Shown: positions 1,091 to 31,372 of the stretch, piece after piece
Position numbering within the stretch: the first letter of the stretch is position 1
Layout: each line of letters begins with the position of its first letter
NCBI GenBank assembly: GCA_964440805.1
Contig: CAYTTR010000009.1
Coordinates: 1,658-65,657 of the forward strand
DNA: 64,000 nt
Reading direction: 5' to 3'
Source: an uncultured Eubacteriales bacterium
Lineage (GTDB): Bacteria > Acidobacteriota > Aminicenantia > Aminicenantales > Aminicenantaceae
The notes under the pieces: model-generated
What the model was told of the DNA's origin: nothing
Seen by the model: only the letters and a program-made list of their open reading frames with translations
The model's database searches: none
Program-made: the position numbers and the translations under genes

Positions 1091-3304
1091 TTGATCGACC
1101 AAAAGATAATCAAGGACCACAACCTGACAGAAGAAGAATTCCAAAAAATAGTTGAACTTATCGGCCGCGAACCAAACCTGACCGAGCTGGGAATATTTTC
1201 TCTTATGTGGTCAGAGCACTGCAGCTATAAAAGCTCCAAGATTCATTTGAAAAAATTCCCAATTTCCGGGGAAAGAGTGATTCAAGGACCGGGAGAGAAT
1301 GCAGGTATTATCGATATCGGTGAGGGAATGGCGGCTGTTTTTAAAATTGAATCCCACAACCATCCTTCTTTCATAGAGCCCTACCAGGGAGCAGCCACTG
1401 GGGTAGGAGGCATTCTGAGGGATATTTTCACCATGGGTGCCCGGCCTATAGCTCTTCTGGATTCTCTGCGCTTCGGTCCTCTTGAAAACCAGAAAAACAA
1501 AGTAATTATGGAGGGTGTGGTTTCAGGCATATCAGGTTACGGCAACTCTACCGGTGTACCTACCGTAGGTGGTGAAGTCTACTTTAATAAATGCTATTCC
1601 CTGAATCCTTTAGTCAATGTTTTTTGCTTGGGATTGGCCAGAAAAAATAAAATTTTTTATGCCAAGGCTGAAGGTATTGGAAATCCGGTGCTTTATGTAG
1701 GCTCTAAAACTGGACGGGATGGAATCCATGGAGCCACCATGGCCTCAGCCGAATTCGACGATGATTTCGAACAAAAACGGCCCAATGTTCAGGTAGGAGA
1801 TCCATTCAAGGAAAAACTTCTCCTGGAAGCCTGCCTGGAAATCATGGCCAAAGACCTGATTATCGGCATTCAGGATATGGGAGCAGCCGGCCTTACCTGT
1901 TCCACCACAGAGATGGCCTCAAAATCCGGGGCTGGAATCGAAATCGATCTTGACCTGGTCCCTCAAAGGGAAGAAGACATGACCCCGCACGAAATCATGT
2001 TGTCCGAATCTCAGGAAAGAATGCTTCTGGTGGCTAAGAAAGATAAAGTGGAAGAAATCCAGAAAATCTTCTCTAAATGGGATCTTGATGCAGTAGTAAT
2101 CGGCAAAGTGGTGGAAGGTGGACAGTTGAAAGTCAAATATAAAAGCCAAGTTGTAGTGGATATTCCCGTGAATGCAGTGGTCAATCTTTGTCCGGTTTAC
2201 CACCGGGAAGGGAAAGAACCTACAGAGAGAAAAGCTAATGTCCTGACCAAGCTCCCTCCTGCCCCAATCAATCTCGAGCAAGACTTCCTCCGTCTTCTTT
2301 CTTCTCCCACCATTGCCTGCAAAGAATGGATCTACAGACAATACGACCATATGGTTCAAATAAATACGGTTTTTCTTCCCGGAGCAGATGCTTCCTTATT
2401 ACGCTTGAAAGGAAAGAAAAAAGCTATCGCTATATCCCTTGACGGCAATTCCCTTTACTGCCGTCTTGAGCCAAAAAAAGGTGGTAAAATTGCGGTGGCC
2501 GAAGCCTGCCGGAATCTGACTTGTGTCGGAGCCTACCCGGTAGGAGTTACCAATTGCCTGAACTTTGGTAATCCCGAGAAACCGGAGGTCATGTGGGAAT
2601 TCAAAGAAGTTGTGGAAGGAATAGCCGAAGCCTGCCGGGATTTCAATATTCCGATAACCGGCGGGAATGTCAGCTTCTACAACGAAACTGGAGGAAAATC
2701 AATTTTCCCTACCCCCGTAGTTGGAGTCGTTGGTCTAATCGATGATATCAAGCTTACGGTTGATCCTGGTTTTAAAGAAGAAGGAGATTTTATCTTTCTT
2801 ATCGGAAACACCAGGGAAGAATTGGGAGGTTCAGAGTACCTCAAAGAAATTCACAGACAAGAACTGGGGCCAGTTCCGGAAATTGACCTGGAACTGGAAA
2901 AGAAAGTTCAGTTGCTTTGTCGACAAGCTATAAATAAAAAGCTTCTAAGGTCTGCCCATGATCTTTCTGAAGGAGGTCTGGCTGTAGCAATTTCAGAGAG
3001 CTGCTTCTGGAGTCCCCGGAAACTTGGCTCCACCATTTACCTTGAACCTGATCAACTGGCACATGTTTTTCTCTTCAGTGAAAGCCAATCTCGCCTTCTT
3101 GTTTCATTGAAAAAAGAAAAAGACTTTCTGGCTCTTTCGCAAGAAGTTAGAGTTCCCGTCTCCCGGTTGGGTCAAACGGGGGGAAAAATGATTTCCTTTA
3201 TTCAAGGTGATAAAAGCATTCTCTCTGTGCCAGTGGAACAGGCTTATTTTGCCTGGAAAAATAGCATACCTAATTTATTCAATCTATTGGGAGAAAAGGA
3301 ATAA
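1091..3304 (+). CDS. purL: phosphoribosylformylglycinamidine synthase subunit PurL (FGAM synthase II)
   Basis: 737 aa; TTG start with AGGAAGGAG SD; two AIR-synthase-related repeats typical of small PurL. Confidence 0.9.
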
Positions 3305-3323
3305 ATCCCGGAAACAAAGTCTA

Positions 3324-4214
3324 ATGAAGATCAATAAAATAACTAAACGCATTCACACCTGGATCATCACATTTCTCCTAATGTTTTGCCTCTTGCCTTC
3401 CTTCATGCAAGGACAGATCAGGATAAAATTTTCTACTGGTATTAATTATCTTTCTCTAAATGAAGTCAATCAAACTCTTGTCGACTGGAAAAAAAGCCTG
3501 GAACTCACCACCGCCACGATGCACAATTGGAATTTTACTGGAGGAAAGATAAAGGAACTTCATAAAGCTTTTGAATTTGAGGGAGAATTGTTGGCCGAAG
3601 TCTTACCTTTTCTTTCAGTGGGTCTTGGCTCAGGGTACCTTCATGGAGAATCTGAAGAAAAAGATACCTGGGCAACTTTAGACAGGGTTCGGGGAGATAT
3701 AGTTTTGGGAGAATACATTTATATAAGGCCTACCAAGGCCAGCGGTATTCCTGTAACTTTGAACCTTTATGCTCATCTTCCCTTGACATCAAGGTTAAAA
3801 CTTTTTCTTAAAGGAGGAGGAGGCTATCTCTGGGCTAAATACATTGAGCAGAATGGATTAAAGCTGGTTTCTGATGAACGCTTCAGCTATTCTGAATCTT
3901 ATAATACTTCTGGCAGCAGCCCCTTGGTTCAGGCTGGTTTGGGAATGCGCCTGGAGCTTAAACCAAACTTGAGCTTGGTAGTAGAAGGGCAAATCCGGAA
4001 AGCTAGAGTTAAAGGATTCACTGGTGAGAATAAAGCTGGAGATGAGGGTACTCTCTATTTCATTGAAGAACTCCAAGAAGAATCTGGCTCTTGGTTGGTT
4101 AAACATCTTTTGTCATCCGAGTTTCCAGAAGGAGAAAATATCCGGTCAGTCAAGGATGCTGTGGTTGATTTCAGTGGATTTTCACTTAAACTAGGTTTCA
4201 TAATAAATTTCTAA
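3324..4214 (+). CDS. putative outer-membrane beta-barrel protein (hypothetical)
   Basis: The track ORF 3207..4214 overlaps purL, so the start was moved to the internal ATG at 3324. That start gives a signal peptide (MKINKITKRIHTWIITFLLMFCLLPSFMQGQ). Alternating hydrophobic pattern and C-terminal ...INF aromatic terminus. Confidence 0.45.
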   Translation: MKINKITKRIHTWIITFLLMFCLLPSFMQGQIRIKFSTGINYLSLNEVNQTLVDWKKSLELTTATMHNWNFTGGKIKELHKAFEFEGELLAEVLPFLSVGLGSGYLHGESEEKDTWATLDRVRGDIVLGEYIYIRPTKASGIPVTLNLYAHLPLTSRLKLFLKGGGGYLWAKYIEQNGLKLVSDERFSYSESYNTSGSSPLVQAGLGMRLELKPNLSLVVEGQIRKARVKGFTGENKAGDEGTLYFIEELQEESGSWLVKHLLSSEFPEGENIRSVKDAVVDFSGFSLKLGFIINF

Positions 4215-4219
4215 GAAGG

Positions 4220-4861
4220 ATGACTATGACTGAAGAAATATTTCGCAGCCCAAAAAAAAGAGGGAAGGTGGTTGTTTTTCTCTCCGGACGCGGCTCTAAT
4301 TTTTTGGCCATTCATGATGGCATAAAGGAAGGAAGGATTAATGCAGATATAGTCCTTGTTTTCAGCAACAAGAAGGAAGCTAAGGGATTGGAGCTTGCCC
4401 GGGAGCAGGGATTGGAGACTTTCTTTCTCGATCCTAAGGAATTTGGTAGTAGGGAAGAATACGACCAGAGAGCCGCAGAAGAAGTAGAAAAGCGAAAAGC
4501 AGACCTTATCTGTCTTGCAGGTTACATGAGAATAATCACTCCTCAGTTTTGTCAACGGTTCAAAAACAGAATGATGAACATACACCCTGCCTTATTACCT
4601 TCTTTTCCGGGGCTCCATGTCCAGAAAAAGGCCGTGGAATGGGGAGTCCGCTATTCTGGTGCCACTGTTCATTTTGTGACCCCGGAAGTTGATATGGGTC
4701 CCATCATTCTCCAGGCAGTTGTGCCGGTAAAACAGGGTGACACGGAAGATAGCTTGAGCCAAAGAATACTCAAGGAAGAACACAAGATTTATCCTGAAGC
4801 AGTCAAACTTTATTTCGAAGGAAGAATTGAAGTCAGGGGAAGAAGAGTATTCATCCTTTAA
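4220..4861 (+). CDS. purN: phosphoribosylglycinamide formyltransferase PurN
   Basis: 213 aa; folate-dependent formyltransferase motifs (VVFLSGRGSN..., NIHPALLP, HFVTPEVDMGPII). Confidence 0.85.
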   Translation: MTMTEEIFRSPKKRGKVVVFLSGRGSNFLAIHDGIKEGRINADIVLVFSNKKEAKGLELAREQGLETFFLDPKEFGSREEYDQRAAEEVEKRKADLICLAGYMRIITPQFCQRFKNRMMNIHPALLPSFPGLHVQKKAVEWGVRYSGATVHFVTPEVDMGPIILQAVVPVKQGDTEDSLSQRILKEEHKIYPEAVKLYFEGRIEVRGRRVFIL

Positions 4862-5200
4862 ATCACATTTCAGTCTATTCCGTCTATCTGGTCTATTTGG
4901 TCTATTTGGTCTATTTGGTCTATTTAGTCTGGATAGGGCAAGACAAGAGAGAAAAGCGAGACGAGCGAGAAAGAGAAGCGTTACTTGCGTTTATTGAGTT
5001 ACTTGCGTTCTTTGTGAGCGACCGTAGGGAGCGTGGCGATCCCAAATTCGTCCGGGAAGGGAAAAGAGAGGCGTTTCATTCTGCCTTTCCCGGTTTATTA
5101 GTAGATTGCCGCGTCACTCGGCTACGCCTCGTTCCTCGCAATGACGGAGCGTCATTTTCATTGCTTGAGTGTGGTAAGCTTGACATGGGGAATTAGCTTG
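4862..5200. repeat. repeat-rich GC-elevated intergenic element, family copy A (5x GGTCTATTT tandem repeat, purine-rich GCGAG block, duplicated GTTACTTGCGTT motif)
   Basis: Tandem 9-mers at 4885-4930; shares ordered blocks (gtctattc ... gcgag/gaagag ... gcgtt-act-tgcgtt) with 6588-6790 and, inverted, 25025-25397. Confidence 0.4.
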
Positions 5201-5329
5201 AAAATGACTGCCCTTTAAGGCAGCAATGCTTTAAATGGATAATCAAACAGAGGATCTTCCTTGAAAATATTTGGTAAAACATATATTTTAAATTTCTATC
5301 AACTTATAATTACAACGATGAGGATTTAA

Positions 5330-6586
5330 ATGAACGAAGTTGGAAAACAACTGGATTACCTCAAAAAAGGATGTGTGGATATCATTCAGGAAGAAGAATT
5401 CAAGTCAAAAATTGAGAATTCTTTGAAAGAAAAGACACCTTTGCGGATTAAGGCAGGATTTGATCCCACTGCTCCTGATATCCATTTAGGTCATACCGTC
5501 TTGATCCGTAAAATGAAACACTTTCAGGATTTTGGCCATGATGTAATTTTTCTCATTGGTGATTTCACCGGACTAATCGGAGATCCTTCCGGAAGATCTG
5601 CGACAAGGCCGGCTATGACCAGGGAACAAATAAATGAAAACGCCGAAACTTACAAAGAACAGATCTTCAAGATTCTGGATCCAGATAAAACTATAATTGA
5701 TTTCAACTCCCGCTGGCTGGCAAAATTGACAAGCTTTGATATTATCAATCTGTCTGCCAAGTATACAGTTGCCCGGCTTCTGGAAAGGGATGATTTTTCC
5801 AGAAGACTAAAAAACGGCCTTCCCATCTCAGTTCATGAACTTCTTTACCCTTTAATGCAAGCCTATGATTCAGTAGCCCTGAAGGCAGATGTGGAGCTGG
5901 GAGGCACTGACCAGAAATTCAACCTGCTGGTAGGAAGAGAGATTCAAAGGGAATTCGGCCAGGAACCTCAGGTAGTAATGACCATGCCTCTTTTAGAAGG
6001 ACTTAACGGAGTTGAAAAAATGAGCAAGTCACTCCAGAATTATGTGGGAATCACTGAAGCTCCTGAAGAAATGTTCGGTAAATTAATGTCTATTTCCGAT
6101 GAATTAATGTTCCGTTATTACGAACTTCTGACAGACATACCCCTTTCTCAAATAGAACAATTGAAAGCTGATATTCAAAAGGGAAAGGTTAACCCCCGCG
6201 ACCTCAAAACCGGGCTGGCCCGGACTATTGTGGCCGATTTCTGGGGAAAGAAAAAAGCCGAGGAAGCCCGGATGGAATTCGACCGGGTGTTCAAACATAA
6301 AGAGATCCCTTCAGAAGTAAAAGAAATACCGGTCAGCCAACCGGTATACCCTTTGGTGAATCTATTGGTGGAAGAAAAAATCCTGCCTTCCAGGGGAGAA
6401 GCCAAACGGCTGATCCGGCAAGGAGGGATTTACTTAGATGGACAGAGGGTCGATGATATCGACATCAAAATAGAACTTAAGACCAAAAAGGAAACTATTC
6501 TCAGGATTGGAAAAAGAAAATTCTTCAAACTGGTTTTTGGGGACGTTCCCCAAAGGGACACCCCTTTCCCTGAAGAAAAACAATAA
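5330..6586 (+). CDS. tyrS: tyrosine--tRNA ligase TyrS
   Basis: 418 aa; class I HIGH (HLGH) and KMSKS motifs; C-terminal S4 domain; last ~15 codons are encoded by a REP-like repeat. Confidence 0.9.
6539..6570 (+). repeat. REP-like dispersed element copy 1 (GGGGACGTTCCCCAAAGGGACACCCC) inside tyrS 3' end
   Basis: Near-identical 26-mer also at 61738-61771, variant at 29883-29914 and reverse-complement tandem at 29995-30033. Confidence 0.5.
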
Positions 6587-6587
6587 T

Positions 6588-6790
6588 AGAGTCTGTTCAG
6601 TCTATTCAGTTGATTAAATGAAGAGGAGCATGGCGAGCAGGAAGAGTTTATAGCGTTTACTGCGTTTTTTGCGTCAGTAGCATTTATTTACTTTTATCTG
6701 GTTTGTTTAGTTTATCCACTCAATCTGGTTTGTCTGGTATAACTTGGTGAAAGAGGCAAGGCTGGCAAAAAAAATGAGACTAAATAAACA
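6588..6790. repeat. repeat-rich intergenic element, family copy B
   Basis: Contains AATCAACTGAATAGACTGAACAGACT (reverse complement; 24/25 identity to 25336-25360), GCGTTTACTGCGTT, GGTTTGTCTGG and AGGCAAGGCTGGC blocks shared with copies A and C. Confidence 0.4.
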
Positions 6791-6816
6791 AGATAAAAAA
6801 GAAAAGAACCGAAAAA

Positions 6817-8295
6817 TCAATAAGGAGGAGGGAAAAACTTTGGTTTTCGGCCGAAAATCTTTTTATATATTTGAGGATAAGCATCCTTTCCTCCAATTAG
6901 AAGACAGGTAAGAGGAAGTACTTTTTCTGCCTCTGCCCTCATTTTCCCCGCAATATTCCGGATATCCCACTGAGCTGTAGCGTCTTCCCTGAGGCGTGAG
7001 ATATGATACAGTTCTCTGGCATTTACCTTTAAAAGAACCCTTCTACGATGAGCATTAGTCAGGATATATGAGGCTCCATTTTCAAGGCACCGATTGAGTT
7101 CTTCATAAACCTCATCCGTTTTCCGGATAACTTCGAGAAATTGCTTTTCTTCCCCGATTTCCTTGACGGAAGGAGGCACAATTACTCCAAGCGAGGGATC
7201 ATATTCCTGAACCGTCAAGGTAGCCATTCTATGCCTTTTAAGCTGGGCAAAGCAGGCTGCTGAGACCACAAGTTCAAAGGTCAGATCTATAAACTCCCAT
7301 TCCCTAAGAGCCGCATCATAAAACTCCATATGGCGGAAGGCCGTTTTTACGAGATCCATTTTCTCATCACGGCTTATTTTTTTTACCCGATCTAAACACT
7401 CTCCATATGACGCCTTTAAGGCAGAAAGAAGAAGAGCTGCCAGTAGTTTTTCATCTCCATCCGGAGTAAAGTCAATCAGGCGGACATCTTCTCGACTTGG
7501 ATTTTCTCCATGAATTAAATCTTTGGCTTTATTCTTTAAGTCTTCAGGCGTTTGGGCATCAAAATCACTGGCCTCTGTGAAAAGAATAATAGAGGGAGCA
7601 ACTTCCTTGGCCAATTGATATATATTCCGGTTAAGCTCAGCCAGTTCAATTAGTTTTTTGGCTGCCATTCGTCGGATAAAATATTCCAAATTGCGGGCAT
7701 TGAGAGTCATCCCCAATTGCCCCAGAGTAGCAAGACAGACAGCATAGCGGGCATCTTCTTTGGCCCAACCTTCCAAAAGAGAATGTTTTTTTGGATTTTC
7801 AGCCAAGTCTTTATGGCATTGGAAAATAAAAGGCCTGAGTTTCTTATAAAGCCTGAAATAGAGATCGTTTTGCAGCTTAACCGTCTTTAGGAAAATACTT
7901 TCCTTGCCCGCCTTTTTGACTTCTTCCGGCAGGAGAAAATCACCTTGTAAAGTGATGTATCGTTGTGATTTCTCAGTATATGAACCAAGCCTGAATCGCT
8001 CGATTTCTTCAATAGCCAACCGGCTGACACCGATTATATCAAAGTTAAATACTGCATGTTCAGCTACTGAATGATGTCCCATTTTGAAAATTATATTCCG
8101 GTTGGAACGCCTGGCCCTTTCCACTTCTTCTCTGGCAATTTTTCTTAACCGGTCGACCGGCCGGGGATCCCGGGAAATCCGGGCATAAGCAGCAGAAAGG
8201 GTTTCCGGAGTTACATCATCACGTGAAGGAGAATTTTTTTTCAGTTCCTTTAGGACTTGGGCATCAACATTATAACCTGCTAAGATGACTTTCAT
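6817..8295 (-). CDS. thyX: FAD-dependent thymidylate synthase ThyX-like, tandem two-domain form
   Basis: Two ThyX-like halves. Domain 1: HHSVAEHAVFNF...RFRLGSYTEKSQRY (RHR replaced by RFR, Ser retained) and NARNLEYF. Domain 2: RHRMATLTVQEY (RHR retained, Ser lost) and NARELY...AQWDIRNIA. Start chosen at the second ATG (AGAGAGAA SD) rather than track 8334. Confidence 0.55.
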   Translation of the reverse strand: MKVILAGYNVDAQVLKELKKNSPSRDDVTPETLSAAYARISRDPRPVDRLRKIAREEVERARRSNRNIIFKMGHHSVAEHAVFNFDIIGVSRLAIEEIERFRLGSYTEKSQRYITLQGDFLLPEEVKKAGKESIFLKTVKLQNDLYFRLYKKLRPFIFQCHKDLAENPKKHSLLEGWAKEDARYAVCLATLGQLGMTLNARNLEYFIRRMAAKKLIELAELNRNIYQLAKEVAPSIILFTEASDFDAQTPEDLKNKAKDLIHGENPSREDVRLIDFTPDGDEKLLAALLLSALKASYGECLDRVKKISRDEKMDLVKTAFRHMEFYDAALREWEFIDLTFELVVSAACFAQLKRHRMATLTVQEYDPSLGVIVPPSVKEIGEEKQFLEVIRKTDEVYEELNRCLENGASYILTNAHRRRVLLKVNARELYHISRLREDATAQWDIRNIAGKMRAEAEKVLPLTCLLIGGKDAYPQIYKKIFGRKPKFFPPPY

Positions 8296-8432
8296 GGTTC
8301 TCTCTACAATAAAAAGAGGCTGAAAAAATGTCAATATAACAACCTGTTCATTAAATATTTATTTTGAGTTAATCACATTATAGAAAAAACTAAATAAATT
8401 TTTCCTTGATTTTTTATTTTATTAATCCTATA

Positions 8433-8590: not shown

Positions 8591-9457
8591 TTGCCCATTT
8601 TAATTAAATCAGTTAAAAGCAAAAACCCTATTACTTCTTTTTTCCAAATTACCAGCGGGATTATCTTCATCTTTCTAATCATTTTTTTCCTAACAGCCGC
8701 CAGAGTTCCTATCCAAGAAACAACAGTGGAAACATGTTCTGTATGTCATGAGGAAGCAGGACTAAAATTCGCTTCCAATCCCCACTCATCAATTGAAAAC
8801 TGTTCTCTCTGTCACCCTGGGGAAAAAACTCATTTGGAAGAAGGAGGGGGTTCCAATATTTTTGCCTTTAAAGCTGAAGATATACCTAATCAAAAAACTG
8901 AAATATGCCTTCAATGCCACAGTAAAGAAGCGGGCCGATATCAATCAAGTCCTCATGGAAAATCTTCCTATGACTGCCTGACTTGTCACCAGATTCACCA
9001 AGAAAACTCCTTTCCATCGCTTCTAAAATCCGAGGAGACAAAAACATGTTCTTCCTGTCACGGGGAAATCTTGTCCCTTTTTCAGCTTAATGAAAAACAC
9101 CGTCTGCTTGAAGGAATCCTGAGTTGTTCAAGCTGTCACGACCCCCATGGCCCCTCGACCCAGACAATTATGGCCGGATTCAAGCATGAATCATGCCTTA
9201 AATGTCACCGGGATAAAGGAGGTCCATATCTTTACGAACATGGGGCCTCCCGTATAGAAGGGTGCACATCTTGTCACGAAGTTCACGGATCACCCAATCA
9301 GCATCTTTTGATAACCCAAAGTGTGGCTGATCTATGTTTCAGTTGCCATGGGGCTGCTCCTGCCTGGCATTCCCGCTTTGATTCCTATTCTACCAACTGT
9401 ACGGTTTGCCATACGGCAATCCATGGCTCCAATCTCAGTAAGATTTTCTTGAAATAG
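8591..9457 (+). CDS. periplasmic decaheme c-type cytochrome (MtrA/MtoA/OmaB-like)
   Basis: 288 aa; N-terminal hydrophobic anchor or signal sequence; 10 CxxCH motifs (CSVCH, CSLCH, CLQCH, CLTCH, CSSCH x2, CLKCH, CTSCH, CFSCH, CTVCH); first gene of a tightly spaced three-gene cluster. Confidence 0.75.
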   Translation: MPILIKSVKSKNPITSFFQITSGIIFIFLIIFFLTAARVPIQETTVETCSVCHEEAGLKFASNPHSSIENCSLCHPGEKTHLEEGGGSNIFAFKAEDIPNQKTEICLQCHSKEAGRYQSSPHGKSSYDCLTCHQIHQENSFPSLLKSEETKTCSSCHGEILSLFQLNEKHRLLEGILSCSSCHDPHGPSTQTIMAGFKHESCLKCHRDKGGPYLYEHGASRIEGCTSCHEVHGSPNQHLLITQSVADLCFSCHGAAPAWHSRFDSYSTNCTVCHTAIHGSNLSKIFLK

Positions 9458-9467
9458 GAGGAAGAGA

Positions 9468-11330
9468 ATGAAACAAACAAAATATATTCCTCTAATAATG
9501 ATTATCCTCTGGCTGAGCCTGGTTACTCTCGGCTATGCTGAAAACAATGATAAAGATTTCTCCCTGAGCTTCCGCCTTGGATACCGGGCAGTGGATCAAA
9601 GTGGAACCCTCCAAAAATACAAAGAAGATATTAATTTAGAAGATGGAATGAGACTTTTTGATTTTACTTTCAAACTGAGCCCCACAAATGAATTGAGCAA
9701 GCTATTTGACCGCGTGGATATAAATGTCTTTAACTTCGGAGGAGATCCTTTCGAAGCCTTAACCCTGTCTGTCCAAAAATACAGCACTTATCAAGTCCAA
9801 TTCAGCCGGAAAAAATCATCCTATTATTACGCCGACCAACATGAAACAGGAGGAGTCATTTACAATCCTCATACCTTTGATTTCAGGAGAATCACCGACA
9901 GCGGACTCCTCAAGATTTGGCTTCTTCCTTCGGTTAACTTTTATTTGGATTTCAACCGTTATGACAAAAGCGGCGAGAGTATTACTACCCTGGATATTAA
10001 CAGGATAGAATTTGAATTTAACCAGCCGATTCAAGAAAAAAGCAAAGAAATTGCCGTTGGATTGAATGCTCAGCCTTTCAAGGAATTCTCGGTCGTACTT
10101 GAAGAAAGAATACTTGATTATGAGAACTCCAACAGTCTTTTCCTCCCAGGGTATGCTGACGGCGGCGAAGGAGCCAGGTATCCTTCTTCATTGAACTTTT
10201 TCAATCTCAATCAACCATACACCTTGAAAAGTTACAGTCATACCTTGAAAATTTATTCCCAACCAATAAAAAGAATTCTCCTCTCCGGCTCTGCTAAAAT
10301 AACCGACCAGGATCTTGATTTAACCTACCAGGAATCAGCTGATGGAATTAATTACCTGGGAAAATTTTTTGATTATTCTTTTCCGGGAATGGGCAAATTT
10401 CAAAGAAAGATTGGTCTTTATGACCTTGACCTTTCTTTTCTTTTATTTGACCGGCTGGCAATTACCGGCGTAATAAGATACCACGATTTTGAACAAGAAG
10501 GAGAAATGACTGTTTCCGGAGAGAAAAAGACCATGGATTTGAACTATGACACTCTCAGCCTGGAAGGAGGAATTCAGTACCGATTTTCATCTGTCATCGG
10601 TTTGCTTGCCGGTTATCGAAACGAGACCCGCACTCTTGAGGGAGTAGAAACGGTAGATTACGAAGAAAAAACGGTAAGACAGGGATTGTTTGGAAACATA
10701 AAGGTCAGTCCTTCCCGGAAATTTACTCTCAATGCCGATTATCAGTTTGGAACCTATGATCACCCATTTACTCTTGTTTCGCCAGCCGAATTTCACCGCT
10801 TCTCTGCCAAGGCCAGATTAAACCAAAAGCTTGTTTCTTTTTCTGCTTCCTATATTTTCACCAAATCAAAGAACGATATTTGGCAAAACGATTGGTCCTC
10901 CACCAGGCATAACTTTGCCTTTTCAGGAAGCTATAAGGGTAAGAACATTAATGGTTCGGCCAGCTATTCTTATGTTCTGCAAAAACACCAAGGGAACCGA
11001 CAGGTAGACTATCCACCCTCTTTTTCCGGACCAGCAGGAACTTTCCTCTGGGAAATCCTCTATGAAGGAAAATCAAATATCCTTAATGGAAACTTATCCG
11101 CCAAGATGGCCGAAAACTGGAATATAGGAGGATTATTTAATTATTACACTAATAAGGGTTTCTGGGAAATTTCCCGCCTCTGGCTCAAAGGTTACATTGA
11201 ATATCTTTTTGAAGAGGGGTTCTTAGCCCAAATAGGGTATCGGTATGTTGATTTCAAAGAGAAAGACTCAGGATTTAATGATTATTCAGCCAATATTCTG
11301 GAATTATCCTTTGGCTACCGCTGGGAATAA
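9468..11330 (+). CDS. outer-membrane beta-barrel porin-like protein (MtrB/OmbB-like sheath of a porin-cytochrome conduit)
   Basis: 620 aa; signal peptide MKQTKYIPLIMIILWLSLVTLGYA; Y/F/W-rich alternating strands throughout. The 11-nt and 15-nt intergenic gaps, each carrying an SD, couple it to both flanking cytochrome genes. Confidence 0.6.
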   Translation: MKQTKYIPLIMIILWLSLVTLGYAENNDKDFSLSFRLGYRAVDQSGTLQKYKEDINLEDGMRLFDFTFKLSPTNELSKLFDRVDINVFNFGGDPFEALTLSVQKYSTYQVQFSRKKSSYYYADQHETGGVIYNPHTFDFRRITDSGLLKIWLLPSVNFYLDFNRYDKSGESITTLDINRIEFEFNQPIQEKSKEIAVGLNAQPFKEFSVVLEERILDYENSNSLFLPGYADGGEGARYPSSLNFFNLNQPYTLKSYSHTLKIYSQPIKRILLSGSAKITDQDLDLTYQESADGINYLGKFFDYSFPGMGKFQRKIGLYDLDLSFLLFDRLAITGVIRYHDFEQEGEMTVSGEKKTMDLNYDTLSLEGGIQYRFSSVIGLLAGYRNETRTLEGVETVDYEEKTVRQGLFGNIKVSPSRKFTLNADYQFGTYDHPFTLVSPAEFHRFSAKARLNQKLVSFSASYIFTKSKNDIWQNDWSSTRHNFAFSGSYKGKNINGSASYSYVLQKHQGNRQVDYPPSFSGPAGTFLWEILYEGKSNILNGNLSAKMAENWNIGGLFNYYTNKGFWEISRLWLKGYIEYLFEEGFLAQIGYRYVDFKEKDSGFNDYSANILELSFGYRWE

Positions 11331-11345
11331 AAACAGGAGGAGGCT

Positions 11346-13487
11346 ATGAAAAATATACTTAGGATTTTGATGATTACTGTAATATTACCGGGAGCAGTTG
11401 TTTTCATTGCCGGAGCCAAAACGGATAATTTTACCGGACTCCTGTCCCTGGTTTCCCATGCTGAAAAGCTCTGGCAAAGTTCAGGCCATGCCGACTCAAA
11501 AGCAGAAGCCTTTACCCATTGGGATGAGGAAGGTTCTATTCCCACTTCTTGCGCCAAGTGCCACTCCACACCTGGTTTTCAAGATTTTCTGGATAATGGT
11601 GAGGTTAACAGCCCAGCCCCACTGGGCACCACAATAGAATGTGAAGCCTGTCATATAAACAAGGAAACCGGAGCTGTTCGGGAACATACAGCGGTTACTT
11701 TTCCCTCTGGAGCGGTAGTAGAGAACCTGGGACCTGAAGCTCTCTGTATGGAATGCCATCAAGGAAGAGCTTCAAAAAAAGATGTTGACATGACTATCGA
11801 CAGCGCCGGTGTCATTGATCCGGACACCCCTTCTTCTTTGTTAAGGTTTGTCAATATCCACTACTATGCGGCTGCCTCTACCCAGTTGGGAACACTTGTT
11901 GAGGGAGGATATGAATATCAAGGAAAATCATATGATGCCCGGTTTTCTCATTTAACCGGCTATAATGCCTGCATAACTTGTCATAATCCTCATTCTCTTG
12001 AAGTGGAATTGGGTCCTTGCCATACCTGCCATGAAGGAGTGAAAGACCCCAAGGATATCCGTTATTACGGGTCGTTTGTTGATTATGACGGAGACGGTAA
12101 TATCACTGAGGGTATGTTTTACGAAATTGAAGACATTAAAAACATCCTTTATCAGGTAATGCAGAGTTATGCCCGGGAAGTGATTAATATTCCTATTGTT
12201 TACGATTCTCATACTTATCCTTATTTCTTCACCGATGTAAACGGGAATGGAGAGCCTGATCCCGAAGAGTTGAACTACGGAAACCGGTATACTTCTTTTT
12301 CCGCCCGCCTGCTCCGGGCAGCTTATAATTATCAGGTTGCCCAAAAAGATCCCGCGGCTTACGCCCACGGCGGCAAATATATTATCCAGATTCTTTATGA
12401 TTCAATAGAGGATCTTAACCGTCAGCTGGCTTCTCCCCTTTCTTTAAACGTAGCCAGAGTAGATGAAGGTCATTTCGACGGATCATCTGAAGCCTGGAGA
12501 CATTGGGATGAAGACGGCGAAGTTCCAAGTTCATGTTCAAAATGCCATAGTGCCGAAGGCCTTGCCTATTTTCTGGAAAATGGAGATTTGGCTTCCCAGG
12601 AAATTTCCAATGGAATGTTATGTGCCACTTGTCATACAACCCCTCCTCATGTGAGACGAGTCGGTCAAGTGACCTTTCCTTCCGGCGAAGTAGAAGACAT
12701 GGGAGACACTTCCAATCTTTGTCTTCAGTGCCATCAAGGACGGGCTTCAAAATATTCCGTGGAGTCAACTATTGCCTCTTCTCCCGGGCCTTACGGGTTT
12801 ATAAATATCCATTACTTTCCGGCTGCAGCTGTTCTTTTCGGCTCTGAAGTCAAAGGGGGATTTGAGTACGCCGGGAAAATCTACGCCGGCCAGCAAACTT
12901 TCCCCAATCATTTAGGCAAATTCGACACTTGTGTTGAATGTCATATGGGAACAAAAAGTGAAGCCAAGCCTTACGACCATCAAGGGAGACTCCACAATGT
13001 CCAAACACCTAATCCTGAAGATTGTGTCTACTGCCATGGACAGGATATTTCCCAGCCGTATCCGGGCGCAGATCCGGCTAAATTCAGTTTTGAGGGGATC
13101 AGGCCAGCTTCCATTCCCGACTTCGATGGGGATGGAAACCGGAGTGAATCTATTAAAGACGAAATTAAGGGTCTGGAAAAAGAACTATATGCCTGGATAC
13201 AAAAATATGCTTTGGAAAAACTGGGAGCTCCCATTGTTTACGATTCTCACAACTATCCTTATTTCTTCAATGACCTCAATGCCAATGGCAAAGTCGACCC
13301 CGGGGAAAATATTTATCCCAATCAATTTAGGCAATTTAATACCCGGCTTCTCAAAGCAGCCTATAATTTTCAGCTTAGTAAAAAAGAACCCTGCGGATAT
13401 ATTCATAATGCCTGGTATGTGGCTCAGCTCTTGGTGGATTCAATTATCGACTTGGGAGGAGATTCGGCTAAATACTCCTGGCGATAA
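11346..13487 (+). CDS. large decaheme c-type cytochrome with internal tandem duplication (candidate outer-surface MtrC/OmcB-like cytochrome)
   Basis: 713 aa; signal peptide; 10 CxxCH (CAKCH, CEACH, CMECH, CITCH, CHTCH, CSKCH, CATCH, CLQCH, CVECH, CVYCH). The two ~350-aa halves share W(R)HWDE(D/E)G..P.SC.KCHS, VYDSH.YPYFF.D.N.NG..DP.E and RLL(R/K)AAYN(Y/F)Q. Confidence 0.7.
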   Translation: MKNILRILMITVILPGAVVFIAGAKTDNFTGLLSLVSHAEKLWQSSGHADSKAEAFTHWDEEGSIPTSCAKCHSTPGFQDFLDNGEVNSPAPLGTTIECEACHINKETGAVREHTAVTFPSGAVVENLGPEALCMECHQGRASKKDVDMTIDSAGVIDPDTPSSLLRFVNIHYYAAASTQLGTLVEGGYEYQGKSYDARFSHLTGYNACITCHNPHSLEVELGPCHTCHEGVKDPKDIRYYGSFVDYDGDGNITEGMFYEIEDIKNILYQVMQSYAREVINIPIVYDSHTYPYFFTDVNGNGEPDPEELNYGNRYTSFSARLLRAAYNYQVAQKDPAAYAHGGKYIIQILYDSIEDLNRQLASPLSLNVARVDEGHFDGSSEAWRHWDEDGEVPSSCSKCHSAEGLAYFLENGDLASQEISNGMLCATCHTTPPHVRRVGQVTFPSGEVEDMGDTSNLCLQCHQGRASKYSVESTIASSPGPYGFINIHYFPAAAVLFGSEVKGGFEYAGKIYAGQQTFPNHLGKFDTCVECHMGTKSEAKPYDHQGRLHNVQTPNPEDCVYCHGQDISQPYPGADPAKFSFEGIRPASIPDFDGDGNRSESIKDEIKGLEKELYAWIQKYALEKLGAPIVYDSHNYPYFFNDLNANGKVDPGENIYPNQFRQFNTRLLKAAYNFQLSKKEPCGYIHNAWYVAQLLVDSIIDLGGDSAKYSWR

Positions 13488-18945: not shown

Positions 18946-19040
18946 GATTTATTCCTTCTTTATTAAATAAAGGAGTAGTAACTTTTTATTAATTATTATT
19001 CAGATTCCTCCAGAAATCAAATTTCAAATTTTTTTGAATA

Positions 19041-19192
19041 GGAGAACATCAGGTATGCCCAGAGCGACATTGAGGCGTTATTCTTCTCAAGCTACTCTTC
19101 GAGGGAATCCGACTTTGTCGGACGGCGAGGATGCAGTGAGAGAAAGGCGAAAAAGCGCCGAAGTAAAGCAAAGAGCATACCTGATGTTCTCC
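19041..19192. repeat. GC-rich intergenic element bounded by a perfect 18-bp inverted repeat
   Basis: GGAGAACATCAGGTATGC (19041-19058) / GCATACCTGATGTTCTCC (19175-19192) flanking a ~116-bp GC-rich core; same architecture as 13503-13700. Confidence 0.5.
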
Positions 19193-19296
19193 TGTTCAAT
19201 GGATTCAACCACACAAAAAGGAAGAAAACCAAATGTTTTAACAAAATGATATTGAGGCGATAGGTTAAATAAATTCTTTCGGATTAGTCAACATTT

Positions 19297-19339: not shown

Positions 19340-20911
19340 ATGAGAACAAAAAAGAGAGCCAATTCATCCCTCTGGGTTATGCTGATATTCTTTTGTCTTG
19401 CCGGAATATGCTATCTCTTTCCTCAAGAGTCTAACCAAGACTATGAAAAAATAACCAGTGATGATTGCAGCGGATGCCATGAGAAAAGTAAACATGGAAC
19501 AGACTTCACACAAGACCTCTCCCATTCTATCCATGAAGGATTTGAATGCTTAGACTGCCATCTCGATAAGAAAACCTTCCCTCATCAAAAAATACCTGAT
19601 TTCGAATTACCTTGCCATAGCTGCGCTTCCTGTCATGAAGAAGAAGCCCAAACATATAAAATTCACGGATGAGCTTTGGTAGCCGAATGTCAAGATGCGC
19701 CGTCTTGTGCAGGCTGTCACGGTGAGCTGGTAAGCCGAGGTCAGACAGATGCTCCGGTATGCACTGACTGCCATGGAGAACACGGCATCTTTTCTCCTAA
19801 TGATCCCCGCTCACCAGTTTCCAGCATCAGATTGGCTGAAGCCACCTGTGCCCCCTGTCATGAATCCGTCAGGCTCTCGGAAAAGTACGGCCTTCCCCTG
19901 GGGCGTTTGGCCTCATTTATAGACAGTTACCACGGCCTGAAAACAAAAGCCGGAGATCAATATGTGGCCAATTGTGCTTCCTGCCACGGAGTTCATAAAA
20001 TACTGCCCAGTTCTGATCCGGAGTCCACAATCCATCCCGCTAATCTTCAAAAAACTTGCGGCGAGTGTCATTCCGGGATTTCTGCTGAATTGGCCCAATC
20101 CCCCATTCACGGCCTGGGAGGTGAAGGCCTCCAGACCAAAGCTGCCAGCATTGTTCAGAATATCTATATTGCCGCCATTATTATTATTATCGGACTAATG
20201 GGCATCCATTGGCTTATCGACCTTATCAGGCAGATAATTTTGGTTGCCCGAAAAAAACCTCAGGTCAGGCGGATGAATGCCAATGAACTCTGGCAACATA
20301 CCCTTCTCATGCTCAGTTTTATTGTCCTGGTTGTCACCGGCTTCTCTCTCAGGTTTGATCAGGCCTGGATTACACGGTTTTTCTTCGGCTGGGAAGGCGG
20401 TTTTAAACTGAGAGGAACCATCCACAGAGTGGCTTCGGTTGTTCTCATCGTGACTACTATATGGCACGTTATTTACCTTTTCTCCAGGAGAGGCCGGAGA
20501 TTTTTTGTCGATATGTGGCCCCGCTTAGGTGATTTCCGCGACTTTATTCAGAAAATCTTGTTTAATCTGGGACTTTCCAAAAAAGAACCCCGGTTCGGGA
20601 GATTCAGTTATATCGAGAAAGCTGAGTATTGGGCTCTTATCTGGGGAAATGCAGTGATGATAGTAACCGGAATACTTCTTTGGTTTGACAATTATTTTGT
20701 CAGAATTTTCCCCAAAGGAGTGCTTGATGTTTCTTTGGTCATTCATTATTACGAAGCCATTCTGGCTTCTCTTGCCATTTTAATCTGGCATCTGTACTCT
20801 ACCGTCTTTAATCCCCGCGTCTATCCCATGAATCCTTCATGGCTTACCGGCAAAATGCCGGAAGACATGTTTATTCACGAACACCAAGCAGTCAAAAAAG
20901 AAGAGATTTAA
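19340..20911 (+). CDS. inner-membrane multiheme cytochrome c fused to diheme cytochrome b (Cbc/CbcL-like quinol oxidoreductase), interrupted by one in-frame TGA at 19670-19672
   Basis: Track ORFs 19340..19672 and 19676..20911 are in the same frame, separated by TGA plus one codon. Only the first ORF has a signal peptide. There are 3+5 CxxCH motifs, then five His-bearing TM helices of PF01292 type (HydC/FdnI-like). Confidence 0.6.
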
Positions 20912-21218
20912 TTAGCCTGGATTATTCACCAGTCGAGGTTGCCGTAGATACGAGGCACAGGGCACGCAGCTGTGGTCTCTCCACCGCAAGTGTCCTGTAA
21001 CGAAGTAGATGCGCCAAGCGCGGCTCGCCTGAAGGGTAAAAAAGGCTGGTTTTAGATAAGATTTGATGAAAGGATTTAATGAACTTAATTTCTTTACCTA
21101 CACCACAATAAAACCTCTTAAGTCATAGGTATTTGTGATATAAAAAGTATCGGCCTTTTTTATGAATGGTTCAGGTTAGTCAAAGAAAATAAAAAATAAA
21201 ATAAACAAACAAATTATT

Positions 21219-22229
21219 CTAAAAGACCCCGGCAATCTTCTGACTACAATGTGGACATAAGCCTTTTCTGATGAGGCTTTCTGCCAGGAAGAATCCATTC
21301 CTCTTGATTAAAATTTTCCCACACGATGGACAAAGGGTGTCCTCTGATTCTCCCAAAACATTACCGATATAAAGATAGTGAAGACCTTCTTCTTTTCCAA
21401 TCTCAACCGCTCGCCTTAATCTCTCCATGGGAGTGGGGCGGGAATCCGTAAATTTATAATCGGGATGAAAACGGCTGATATGCCAGGGGATATTGGGATC
21501 AACGCCGGCCAGAAACCGGGCTATCTCCCGCAGCTCCTTATCACTGTCGTTCTCTCCTGGGATTATCAAGGTGGTTACCTCAACCCATATATCATTTTTT
21601 TTCAAAAAGCTTATACAATCCAAAACCGGCTGTAAGCGGGCCTTACACATTTTTTTATAAAATTCATCTCTAAATGATTTAAGATCCACATTGGCAGCAT
21701 CCAGCCAGGGCGAAATTTTTTCAACAGCCTCCTGGGTTAGGTAACCGTTAGTGACAAAATTATTTCCCAGGCCTTCTTTTTTTGCCAGCTTGGCTGTCTC
21801 ATAGGCATACTCAAAAAAAATTGTCGGTTCAGTATAAGTATAAGAAATACTGCTGCAGTCATTGGTTAAGGCTTGCCTGACCACTTCTTCAGGGGAAAGT
21901 TTATACCCGGAAAAAACCTTTTCTTTCTGCCGGGAAGCCTGGGATATCTGCCAATTCTGACAAAAAGGGCATTGAAAGTTGCAGCCGATAGTGGCAATGG
22001 AAAAGGCTTTAGTGCCGGGAAGAAAGTGATATAAAGGTTTTTTTTCAATCGGATCTACATGGGCTGCTATAACTTCTCCGAAAACATGGGTATAAAGTTT
22101 GCCCTCCTTGTTTTCTCTAACCCGGCAAATTCCCCAGTTCCCTGGATTTATTTCACACCTATGAGCACAGAGAAAACAGTTGACCCGGTCTTCATCAAGA
22201 GTCTTATAGAGCATGGCTTCTCGAATCAT
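21219..22229 (-). CDS. radical SAM enzyme, AmmeMemoRadiSam/PFL-activase-like
   Basis: 336 aa; CNFQCPFCQNWQIS CxxxCxxC cluster motif with QN..IS tail; additional N-terminal Cys pairs. Confidence 0.6.
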   Translation of the reverse strand: MIREAMLYKTLDEDRVNCFLCAHRCEINPGNWGICRVRENKEGKLYTHVFGEVIAAHVDPIEKKPLYHFLPGTKAFSIATIGCNFQCPFCQNWQISQASRQKEKVFSGYKLSPEEVVRQALTNDCSSISYTYTEPTIFFEYAYETAKLAKKEGLGNNFVTNGYLTQEAVEKISPWLDAANVDLKSFRDEFYKKMCKARLQPVLDCISFLKKNDIWVEVTTLIIPGENDSDKELREIARFLAGVDPNIPWHISRFHPDYKFTDSRPTPMERLRRAVEIGKEEGLHYLYIGNVLGESEDTLCPSCGKILIKRNGFFLAESLIRKGLCPHCSQKIAGVF

Positions 22230-22891: not shown

Positions 22892-25024
22892 TCAAAACAA
22901 GCATTGTCCTCTGATACATCCACCGGAGAACTCAGAATGAGCTGAGATAAAATCCCTTTCCCAATCCTCCGTCCCCTCACTTTCATCTCCAGGGAAAAAA
23001 AGCACCTGGTCATCCTTAGAACCGTAGCGGTAAACAGTAATCCCTTTGCATTTCAATTGATAAGCTCTTAAATAGATATCTTTCACCTGTTCTACCGGGG
23101 CTTCATGAGGAAGATTAACTGTCTTGGAGACCGAGTTATCCGTAGATGCTTGAAAAGCAGCTTGTATGCGCAAATGCTGCTCCGGGGAGACATCGAAGGC
23201 AGTGACAAAAATCTCCCGGATATCTTCAGGTATTTCTTTGACATTCTGGATAGAACCAAGGCGTCCGGCATAAGCCAAGAAATCCCTGGTATCCAGGCCT
23301 CTTTCTTTCATCTTTTTTTCAAAGAGAGGATGCACCTCGAGCAAACGGGTTCCAGAAAGGACTTTCCGCACATAGCTGAGGGCAAACAACGGCTCTATTC
23401 CACTGGAGCAATCAGCTATGATGCTTATGGTCCCGGTGGGAGCAATAGTGTTGACTGTGGCATGGCGTAACTTGATTCCTTTTTTGGAATAAACCGACCG
23501 CTCGTAGTTTGGAAAAACCCCTCTCTCTTCTGCCAAAGATGCCGACGCTTTTAAGCTCACCTGATGGAAAACTCTCATCAGCCTTGAAGCCATTTCTTCA
23601 GCCTTAGGCGAGTTATAAGGGATTCCCATCTTGATTAACATATCGGCAAAACCCATCACTCCCAGGCCAATTTTCCGGTTGCCTTTGGTCATTTTTTCTA
23701 TTTCAGGCAGCGGATAACGGTTGACTTCAATCACATCATCCAGAAAACGAACTGCCCAGTGAATTGCCTCTTTCAATTCGAGCCAGTCCAGAGCTCCGTT
23801 GCTGACAAGTTTGGAAAGGTTCAATGAACCCAAGTTACAGCTTTCATAAGGCAAAAGTGGAACCTCGCCGCATGGATTAGTAGCTTCAATTCTTCCCAGT
23901 TCGAGCAGGGGGTGGCGGCGGTTGATTTCATCAAGAAATATCAAGCCCGGATCTCCCGACCTCCAAGCAGCAAAAACAATGAGATCAAAAAGTGAACGGG
24001 CTTTAACTTTTCTGACTGTTTCTTTGTTTCTGGGATTAATCAAATCAAATTCCTCATCATTCATTACCGCATCCATAAAAGCATCGGTGACTCCCACAGA
24101 AAGATTAAAATTGGGCAGGGTCTCTTTTTCCAATTTGGCCTCAATGAAATCAAAGATATCAGGGTGATCACAACGAAGAATCCCCATATTGGCACCCCGG
24201 CGCCGTCCTCCCTGGACAATTACTTGGGTAGCCTGATTAAAAATGCTCATGAAAGACAGCGGACCAGACGCTTTTCCCTTAGTGGTGGAGACGAGATCTC
24301 CTTCCGGCCTTAACTGAGAAAAATCGAATCCGCAGCCGCCGCCCGTCTGATGAATAAGGGCCATATTCTTAAGAGCTTCAAAAATGCCGCTCATCGAATC
24401 CTCAACCGGAAGAACAAAACAGGCGGACAATTGGCCTAAGGGAGTACCGGCATTCATCAGAGTCGGAGAATTAGGCAAAAATTCCAGGCCGGACATCATC
24501 TGAAAAAACTTTTCTTCGACTTCTTCCCGGTTTTTTTTTGACTTGAACTCCAGCTCTGCTTCGCTGACGGTTCGAGCTACCCGGGCGAACAATTCGCCCG
24601 GAGTTTCCACCACCCTCTGATTATCATCCTTCAGGAGATACCGTTTATTGAGGACAAAAAGACTGTTCAAGGGGAGTTTAAGGTCGTCTTTCAGACCGTA
24701 AGCTGTTTTTAGTTGCCGAATATCGCCTCTCTGCTGGCGGTAAAGTATGTATTTTTTGGCTATAAAAGAATAGCCGGCCTCCATTAAACTTTTTTCCACG
24801 ATATCCTGGATTTCTTCAACTGAAGGAACGGCTCCCTTGAATTGCTCGGAAATTTTACTCAAACAGCGGGGAAGAACATCAGTCGCAATCTTTATAGCCT
24901 TCTCTTCATCCTGAACTATCTCCAAGGAAGCAGCTTTAATGGCTTGGCTGATTTTGGAGGGATCAAACCTTACAATCTGGCCGTCTCTCTTTCTGATTTT
25001 TTGCGGCTGCTCTTCATTGGACAT
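22892..25024 (-). CDS. nrdJ: adenosylcobalamin-dependent ribonucleotide reductase (class II, NrdJ) with N-terminal ATP-cone
   Basis: 710 aa; ATP-cone (KRDGQIVRFDPSKI), active-site EATNPCGE, ...CNLGSLNL; no separate radical-generating subunit nearby. Confidence 0.85.
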   Translation of the reverse strand: MSNEEQPQKIRKRDGQIVRFDPSKISQAIKAASLEIVQDEEKAIKIATDVLPRCLSKISEQFKGAVPSVEEIQDIVEKSLMEAGYSFIAKKYILYRQQRGDIRQLKTAYGLKDDLKLPLNSLFVLNKRYLLKDDNQRVVETPGELFARVARTVSEAELEFKSKKNREEVEEKFFQMMSGLEFLPNSPTLMNAGTPLGQLSACFVLPVEDSMSGIFEALKNMALIHQTGGGCGFDFSQLRPEGDLVSTTKGKASGPLSFMSIFNQATQVIVQGGRRRGANMGILRCDHPDIFDFIEAKLEKETLPNFNLSVGVTDAFMDAVMNDEEFDLINPRNKETVRKVKARSLFDLIVFAAWRSGDPGLIFLDEINRRHPLLELGRIEATNPCGEVPLLPYESCNLGSLNLSKLVSNGALDWLELKEAIHWAVRFLDDVIEVNRYPLPEIEKMTKGNRKIGLGVMGFADMLIKMGIPYNSPKAEEMASRLMRVFHQVSLKASASLAEERGVFPNYERSVYSKKGIKLRHATVNTIAPTGTISIIADCSSGIEPLFALSYVRKVLSGTRLLEVHPLFEKKMKERGLDTRDFLAYAGRLGSIQNVKEIPEDIREIFVTAFDVSPEQHLRIQAAFQASTDNSVSKTVNLPHEAPVEQVKDIYLRAYQLKCKGITVYRYGSKDDQVLFFPGDESEGTEDWERDFISAHSEFSGGCIRGQCLF

Positions 25025-25865: not shown

Positions 25866-25932
25866 GGAAATAATTTCCTCGGGAGTGAGATTTTTAACTT
25901 CTCTATATTCCTTCACAGTTAAATACCTTGGT

Positions 25933-30033: not shown

Positions 30034-30034
30034 T

Positions 30035-31372
<1,338 letters not shown>

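Follow-up and report, generated by a model that had tools for sequence, protein, structure and literature searches.

The question raised by the locus examined here is what fills the 468 bp that separate the stop codon of purN (position 4861) from the start codon of tyrS (position 5330) in an uncultured Eubacteriales bacterium, which the GTDB lineage places in the Aminicenantaceae of the Acidobacteriota. The locus lies in a stretch of 64,000 nucleotides (contig CAYTTR010000009.1 of GenBank assembly GCA_964440805.1, positions 1,658 to 65,657 of the forward strand), referred to below as the window. An earlier note, made from the letters of the window alone, had called this gap unusually long, and so it is: it ranks as the third-longest intergenic gap of the window, and the same two genes are 0-150 bp apart in other Aminicenantes, or 353 bp in one of them. 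The note had further described the gap as a repeat-rich leader of tyrS and as the first copy (A) of a family of intergenic elements, with a second copy (B) at 6588-6790 and a third (C), inverted, at 25025-25397. We contend, at a probability of about 0.6 and on grounds of sequence comparison, that this family is a lineage-specific, non-coding interspersed minisatellite or mosaic repeat, spread by recombination or by a mobiliser and probably selfish or neutral.

Comparison of the copies with each other and with their counterparts in related genomes shows that they share ancestry, that their unit number changes, that they have come to occupy new intergenic sites and that their interiors have been exchanged. 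The relationship is clearest between B and C, which align over 83-108 nt at 78-81% identity (E 1e-16), non-repetitive sequence such as GGCTGGAAAAGGCGAGGCTGGCGAGATAAGTGAGAC included, and over further stretches of 25-29 nt at 90-96%. The fit of copy A is looser. BLAST aligns it with C over 140 nt at 64% identity (E 3e-5), a nhmmer profile built from B and C matches it at 4836-4962 (E 3.4e-6), and its segment 4935-5015 aligns with the GGAG..GCGAGC..GAAGAG / GCGTT blocks of the other two copies; by these measures copy A appears to be a distant, weak member of the family. Both the alignment and the profile search find the blocks in the same order among the copies. The intergenic element family proposed in the earlier note is thereby real, and the shared blocks exceed what low complexity would produce by chance. 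The extents given for it were partly right: the stretches at 6588-6790 and, inverted, at 25025-25397 do contain homologous copies, but of the purN-tyrS gap only about 4865-5015 belongs to the family. Besides A, the profile matched only orthologous copies in ~1.9 Mb of sequence searched.

A 9-bp period runs through all three elements, each of which sits between called genes. Identity at a lag of 9 nt reaches 0.65 in the left part of A (z 10.5), 0.53 in B (z 8.9) and 0.53 in C (z 9.0), against 0.27 in shuffles. The four most periodic 90-nt segments of the whole 64 kb all fall in A, B and C, with values of 0.59-0.73 where the mean is 0.27, and among 755 kb of other loci this periodicity was found solely at orthologues of the three copies. 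When the elements are cut into 9-mers, nearly the whole of each proves periodic: T-rich units (GTCTATTYN, GTTTGTYTN, GCGTTTAYT) alternate with purine-rich blocks (GAGAnnAGn, AAGATAAAC, GGCGAGATA/AGTGAGACT), the reverse complements of which look like the T-rich units. The diverged unit has a consensus of roughly GTYTATYYN. The phase is not strictly held, as the register slips by 1 nt between blocks and Tandem Repeats Finder (TRF) reports 3-4% indels in the left array of C.

The internal plan of the copies departs in places from what had been read by eye. In copy A, TRF delimits an array of period 9 with 6.4 copies and 89% matches, in which perfect GGTCTATTT units start at 4890, 4899, 4908 and 4917 and degenerate units lie on both sides; the tandem array of the earlier note is therefore real, although its perfect units number four and not five. 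The purine-rich block (GCGAGACGAGCGAGAAAGAGAAGCG at 4956), the duplicated motif (GTTACTTGCGTT at 4980 and 4998) and the palindrome (AATGACGGAGCGTCATT at 5140) were all recovered as described. The array that the note had paired with that of copy A in copy C is a different part of the element. It consists of four AAGATAAAC units in element orientation, which read CTTGTTTAT on the forward strand, matches B at 6779-6805 and constitutes the inverted array of the far end, whereas the true counterpart in C is the degenerate GTCTATT-type array on its left side, 96% identical over 25 nt to B at 6591-6615. Inverted arrays are present inside B (6692-6711 / 6779-6798) and C (25135-25174 / 25320-25358, 70%); these degenerate arrays take internal or subterminal positions, and copy A has none. 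Elsewhere in the window, the sequence GGTCTGTTCAGATAAATAAAAGAAAAGAGGCGGAATGAGTGAGG at 54962-55010 resembles the junction of array and purine-rich block. Its similarity is not significant (nhmmer E 0.36; BLAST 28 nt at 82%), and it could represent a short remnant of the family.

Two groups of loci, recovered through their proteins, allowed the copies to be followed between genomes. One belongs to a close, conspecific strain (GCA_048622495.1; loci L081 and L093), whose flanking genes are 98.1-99.5% identical to those of the window in nucleotides, and the other to a sister species (Logan SRR28875795; loci L082, L094 and L114), whose genes are ~80% identical. Further relatives comprised a more distant locus (L096) and Aminicenantes loci L001-L012. 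No tyrosyl-tRNA synthetase of a GTDB species representative exceeds 73% identity to that of the window, and the representatives concerned are all metagenome-assembled genomes (MAGs) of Aminicenantes/Saccharicenans.

Within the species, the arrays are where the genomes differ. Along 9.75 kb aligned between the window and L081 of the close strain, only two indels exceed 3 bp, one of 27 bp in the array of A and one of 9 bp in that of B, where the strain is one unit short at 6590. The right array of C is likewise shorter in L093, with three AAGATAAAC units in place of the four of the window, a difference of 9 bp. Whole 9-bp units are gained or lost between near-identical strains, and the suggestion of the earlier note that the copy number of a variable minisatellite might differ between strains was borne out at each of the three copies, the close strain having the fewer units every time.

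Between species, it is the presence of the elements that varies. The gap between the rubrerythrin-like gene and the ribonucleotide reductase gene (nrd), which houses copy C, measures 373 bp in the window and 374 bp in the close strain, against 111 bp in the sister species (L094) and 146 bp in L096, and copy C is absent from both of the shorter gaps. Because these two gaps are without the element, copy C is a gain in the lineage of the window. The sister species keeps a long purN-tyrS gap, in which the array is diverged yet still 9-periodic, and its copy B is degenerate. Neither A nor B is found in the distant Aminicenantes loci L001-L012; in L010, for example, the tyrS-thyX gap is 98 bp long and without the element. 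Since the more distant Aminicenantes show no similarity to the element, the origin of A and B dates to the ancestor that the window species shares with its sister. The three copies had no BLAST match among 80 tyrS loci of GTDB representatives, and ~56 kb of the sister contig held no additional copies.

Locus C also records an exchange between copies. The flanks and the ends of the element are identical in the window and in L093, yet the overall identity of the two copies is only 77%. The copy of L093 (853-1140) is a chimera with C-like ends and an interior of ~210 nt that is 82-83% identical to B, whereas the interior of C in the window is 64% identical to B. A collapse of repeats during assembly is unlikely to account for this, because the match of the chimera to copy B of its own strain is 83% and not 100%. 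Such a structure points to exchange, in the form of gene conversion, among the copies of the family within the species.

Returning to the gap between purN and tyrS, its sequence resolves it into a composite of a partial family copy, an unrelated GC-rich hairpin insert and an ordinary promoter region of tyrS (Table 1). The GC-rich core had been taken for a part of the family in the earlier note, but 5016-5156, palindrome included, is without a counterpart in B or C. The insert shows no 9-bp periodicity (lag-9 identity 0.29, z 0.9 for 5016-5150); it is present in L081 of the close strain, and unrelated sequence takes its place in L082 of the sister species. Its DNA fold (z -2.0) pairs, approximately, 5032-5041 with 5105-5114 and 5052-5058 with 5087-5093. 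A 99-aa open reading frame (ORF) across copy A (4897-5196) lacks both a Pfam match and an equivalent in the sister species, and is probably a spurious, repeat-derived translation. A coding role of the elements was rejected on this ground and on the further one that no ORF spans B or C, both of which have stops in all frames.

The insert carries a motif of its own. Motifs of the GATTGCCGCGTCACTCGGCTACGCCTCGTTCCTCGCAATGAC kind are known from MAG annotations, and a pattern scan of IMG/VR was run on this motif. The pattern GATTGC-N6-36-CTCGCAATGAC occurs in at least 120 viral contigs of that collection; among the matches listed (1.08 Mb) there are at least 202 instances, and at least 43 contigs carry two or more. 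The contigs listed range from 30 to 72% GC, the commonest form is GATTGCTTCGCTTCGCTCGCAATGAC, and inverted pairs ~50 nt apart are frequent. Judged by these matches, GATTGC...CTCGCAATGAC is a widespread hairpin motif of the kind of repetitive extragenic palindromic (REP) sequences. It resembles REP and REPIN elements as a GC-rich hairpin motif with conserved flanks that is multi-copy and often arranged in inverted pairs in unrelated contigs, and is unlike them in that there is one clear copy, and a single instance of the pattern, in this window. A candidate inverted partner at 5007-5040 was rejected, its score of 9 being not significant against 7.5 +/- 1.5 in shuffles. A literature search returned no publication quoting the motif and no name for it.

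Downstream of the insert, the tyrS-proximal region is 75% identical over 193 nt to L082 of the sister species, is not 9-bp periodic and contains a perfect 10-nt inverted repeat (5151-5160/5199-5208) that can form a hairpin. The only promoter-like site of the gap is found here, ~40 nt ahead of the tyrS start codon and downstream of all repeat material. Its -35 hexamer, TTGAAA, aligns with a CTTGAAA that recurs just upstream of tyrS in L002, L003, L005, L006 and L007. As the repeats lie upstream of the likely tyrS promoter, they are not a leader of tyrS, contrary to the description in the earlier note, and copy B is not a leader either, because it is placed between two convergent 3' ends. The long region upstream of tyrS can thus be removed from consideration as a riboregulatory leader, which had been a false lead.

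Table 1. Positions in the window of the family copies, of the parts of the purN-tyrS gap and of neighbouring genes
Feature	Positions	Strand	Basis and remarks
Copy A, partial (left-half) family member	4865-5015	+	Starts a few nt past the purN stop codon
GTCTATTYN tandem array of A, a variable-number tandem repeat (VNTR)	4873-4930	+	TRF; 3 units (27 bp) shorter in strain locus L081
Purine-rich 9-mer block (GAGAnnAGn units), then duplicated GTTACTTGCGTT block	4935-5015	+	9-mer register, direct repeats
GC-rich hairpin insert	5016-5150	+	Non-periodic; no counterpart in B or C; single-copy in the window
REP-like motif GATTGCCGCGTCACTCGGCTACGCCTCGTTCCTCGCAATGAC	5104-5145	+	3' end overlaps the palindrome AATGACGGAGCGTCATT (5140-5156)
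tyrS-proximal region	5151-5329	+	Conserved in the sister species
Promoter-like site TTGAAA-17-TATTTT	5261-5289	+	Consensus scan; predicted, consensus match only
Copy B, full family member	6588-6812	+	Between convergent tyrS and thyX 3' ends, directly after the tyrS stop codon
Copy C, full family member	25101-25383	-	Between the rubrerythrin-like gene stop and the nrd start; nhmmer 25383-25101
Right-hand inverted array of C	25129-25167	-	TRF, period 9, 4.3 copies, 100% matches
Left-hand degenerate GTCTATT-type array of C	25296-25367	-	TRF, period 9, 7.2 copies (~7 units), 71% matches
purL	1091-3304		Pfam
purN	4220-4861	+	Pfam
tyrS	5330-6586	+	Pfam
thyX	6817-8334	-	Pfam
ATP-cone ribonucleotide reductase gene (nrd, class II)	22892-25024	-	Pfam
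Rubrerythrin-like gene	25398-26027	-	Pfam

For the family as a whole we propose a history in which slipped-strand mispairing would change the number of units, template switching would generate the inverted blocks, and ectopic recombination or gene conversion, or else a mobilising enzyme, would spread and homogenise the copies. The elements would then be selfish or neutral DNA that serves no dedicated function, settles just 3' of stop codons and takes no part in the regulation of tyrS. Several points weigh against this account. The evidence on distribution covers three copies in 64 kb and three related genomes. When the empty site of L094 is aligned with copy C of the window, the flanks are too diverged to fix the boundaries of the element or to reveal a target-site duplication, no clean terminal inverted repeat or target-site duplication is definable, and no transposase or mobilising gene was noticed in the window, of which only 8 ORFs were scanned. 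The sister species holds the 9-bp periodicity at A even though its unit sequences have diverged, which could mean selection and not turnover. The upstream neighbour of each copy has the same orientation, and its stop codon precedes the start of the copy by ~3-30 nt. This placement, expected by chance in about 1 case in 8 and not significant, may with three copies express a preference of insertion or, less comfortably for the account given here, a role in the 3' untranslated region (UTR).

Other explanations have to be set beside a repeat of this kind. Classical miniature inverted-repeat transposable elements (MITEs) are conceivable, though unlikely: a transposase encoded elsewhere would recognise the subterminal 9-mer arrays as sets of binding sites, inverted at one end relative to the other, and move the elements, by cut-and-paste or by copying, to new intergenic sites. 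The inverted 9-mer arrays towards the ends of B and C, the small size and non-coding nature of the elements and the pattern of presence and absence between species (C missing from L094 and L096, A and B from L001-L012) are all as such a scheme would have them. The difficulties noted above for boundaries and for a mobilising gene bear on MITEs directly, since neither target-site duplications nor sharp terminal inverted repeats can be defined and a transposase gene was not seen among the few ORFs scanned. Copy A moreover has no right end, ~56 kb of the sister contig has no copies at new sites, and the periodicity extends throughout the element and is not a property of its ends alone. The chimeric copy C of the close strain likewise suggests recombination rather than transposition.

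Action at the level of RNA appears improbable. The copies could be small RNA genes, or structures of the 5' or 3' UTR such as a riboregulatory leader of tyrS or hairpins that stabilise the 3' end of an mRNA, for which REP in E. coli serves as an example. Since each copy lies directly 3' of a gene of the same orientation, transcription of all three as part of a 3' UTR is probable, and C folds as a long imperfect hairpin with an RNA z of -2.5. The RNA z of B, however, is -0.6, the z values obtained with DNA parameters are +0.1 and +1.8, and DNA-parameter folds of C and of its counterpart in L093 are no better than those of shuffles. Scans for promoters and terminators found no pair inside the left part of A, B or C; intrinsic terminators were absent from B and C, and the one match at A (5066-5089) falls inside the GC core. 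The small RNA genes considered in the earlier note thus gain nothing from either the scans or the unremarkable folds. Strains differ by swapped interiors and by the size of their arrays, and pairing is not visibly maintained.

The same holds for the riboregulatory leader that the note had considered. Rfam returned tRNA-Ala only for the whole window at gathering score, and permissive scans of 4800-6900 and 24980-25440 gave nothing credible. A T-box or other riboswitch was rejected on these results; for the T-box, 4800-6900 gave no match at the gathering score, nor with E relaxed to 10. The gap has in common with a T-box leader that it is a long non-coding stretch upstream of tyrS, and is unlike one in this lack of a match, in the promoter-like site that lies 3' of the repeats and in the absence of the region from other Aminicenantes. 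The position of the arrays, outside promoter spacers and ORFs alike, makes a role in phase variation unlikely. A cluster of DnaA boxes or another origin-like element was rejected by inspection: there is a single TTATCCAC (6712), and the units are without the CACA half.

It is distinctly improbable that the units act as iteron- or operator-like sites, bound by a protein that coats direct and inverted units and thereby regulates or organises purN, thyX and nrd. Arrays coated by protein are known from the operators of omega/ribbon-helix-helix proteins and from partition sites, and units that are contiguous, occur in both orientations and keep their period in the diverged copy A of the sister species would suit such a function, as would neighbours that include purN, thyX and a class II ribonucleotide reductase gene. 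The unit sequences, however, are poorly conserved both within and between copies, and such perfect runs as there are have the look of recent slippage. A drift of register by 1 nt between blocks, the 3-4% indels of the left array of C and a unit number that differs between near-identical strains are also hard to reconcile with bound arrays, as is the position of B between two 3' ends and the absence of C from a sister species that has the same genes. In its fullest form, which we regard as very improbable, the 9-bp units would be cooperative platforms for a DNA- or RNA-binding protein of this lineage, operator- or centromere-like arrays dispersed at the ends of genes of nucleotide metabolism (purN/tyrS, thyX, nrd) and not junk; were this true, array length would be a tuning knob that varies between strains. 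That the copies are independent local minisatellites, alike through T-richness and low complexity and forming no family, is scarcely credible: arrays of three GTCTATTYR or three GTTTATCTT units do occur with dissimilar flanks in unrelated viral and giant-virus contigs, and A resembles B and C only weakly, but the non-repetitive sequence common to B and C, the long match of the L093 copy to B and the shared block order largely refute this explanation for the latter two copies, for A alone it being possible.

An interspersed minisatellite or mosaic repeat, as preferred here, has parallels in other bacteria. Mycobacterial interspersed repetitive units (MIRUs, or MIRU-VNTRs) are minisatellite-like tandem arrays of intergenic regions, oriented with the adjoining genes and variable between strains in the number of their units. 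The present family is likewise made of scattered intergenic tandem arrays that follow the orientation of genes and differ in unit number between close strains. It is unlike MIRUs in the length of the unit (9 bp, versus about 40-100 bp in MIRUs), in the occurrence of both unit orientations inside one element and in having no small ORFs that couple the flanking genes; no similarity of sequence is apparent, and the two belong to different phyla.

A second set of parallels is offered by BOX elements of Streptococcus pneumoniae, by the bacterial interspersed mosaic elements (BIMEs) and REP sequences of enterobacteria and by the neisserial intergenic mosaic elements (NIMEs). These too are modular non-coding mosaics with a variable number of internal modules and partly inverted, hairpin-capable ends that lie at gene 3' ends and in the gaps of convergent gene pairs, and their similarity between copies is maintained by recombination. 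They are built from distinct modules of 35-60 bp, whereas here the whole element derives from one 9-bp unit; hairpin stability is unexceptional here, and the family is limited to one species pair in the sequences examined. SSTR9 / Ft-M3 of Francisella tularensis, a 9-bp VNTR used in typing, shares with the family its tandem 9-bp units and the change of whole units between strains. Typing VNTRs of this kind are single loci, unlike the present arrays, which belong to a dispersed homologous element with conserved non-array blocks. In the way it behaves, the family comes nearest to MIRU-type interspersed minisatellites and the BOX/BIME/NIME mosaics, a resemblance of architecture alone, and its arrays act as ordinary short-unit VNTRs do.

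Searches for relatives of the family at large returned little. There was no detectable sequence match to it in Rfam and, for A and B, none by BLAST against the plasmids of PLSDB. A scan of JGI metagenomes for GAGACTAAATAAACAAGAT gave 9 matches, which share only a common 19-mer and are attributable to chance, and a scan of viral sequences for a 22-mer gave 0 matches. Nothing relevant was found in the literature on repeats of Aminicenantes or on 9-bp tandem repeats.

Several further observations concern the neighbouring genes. The interval between purL and purN is occupied by a 335-aa ORF (3207-4214) with no Pfam match, and ORFs of 288-326 aa take the same position in L082, L008, L009 and L010, a correspondence of position only. 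ThyX of the window (6817-8334; ~492-505 aa) contains two Thy1 stretches and is about twice the usual length, and the long form is kept in related Aminicenantes, as in L010 (509 aa, 56% identity). In the window and in L081, a three-gene cluster (8591-13487) separates thyX from an M24 peptidase gene; two of the three genes have Pfam matches, mostly weak or faint, to multihaem cytochrome c families, and at the position of the cluster L082 of the sister species has ~1.7 kb (10277-12047) with a sole ORF of 81 aa. A protein 99% identical to the nrd product (P0121) carries the NCBI name adenosylcobalamin-dependent.

Other intergenic regions of the window have features of their own. An inverted repeat of 25 nt (19034-19058 / 19175-19199), 96% complementary and with its arms 116 nt apart, sits in the 394-bp gap between a NAPRTase gene and the gene starting at 19340. 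Some 300 bp lie between the gene end at 20911 and the end of a radical-SAM gene at 21219; in the 98%-identical strain the corresponding gap is 12 bp (window 20915-21314 compared with L093 4924-5056). The extra sequence includes a GC-rich stretch (20920-21040) and gave no Rfam match in a permissive scan of 20880-21240, and the 3' end of the radical-SAM gene is also unlike between the window and L093.

A second short repeat family, GGGGACGTTCCCCAAAGGGACACCCC, has copies at 6539-6575, 29883-29919, 29997-30035 (inverted) and 61740-61776. The first of these lies inside the 3' end of tyrS, the ORF of which has 418 aa here versus 405 aa in the sister species, and the inverted pair at 29883-30035, ~150 bp across, has a MITE-like look. 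The family is present in L081 of the close strain and absent from ~75 kb of the sister species.

The present comparison describes, in an uncultured lineage of Aminicenantes, a family of interspersed minisatellites that evolves fast. As its arrays contain the only sizeable indels in the 9.75 kb compared between two strains, they could be exploited as markers for strain typing in metagenomes, in the manner of multiple-locus VNTR analysis (MLVA). The chimeric copy C offers a small and clean case of exchange between dispersed repeat copies, and the family would gain in interest if a binding protein or a mobilising enzyme belonging to it exists. The intergenic regions of the species are reshaped by three or more unrelated families of short repeats, one of which lengthens the reading frame of tyrS at its 3' end.

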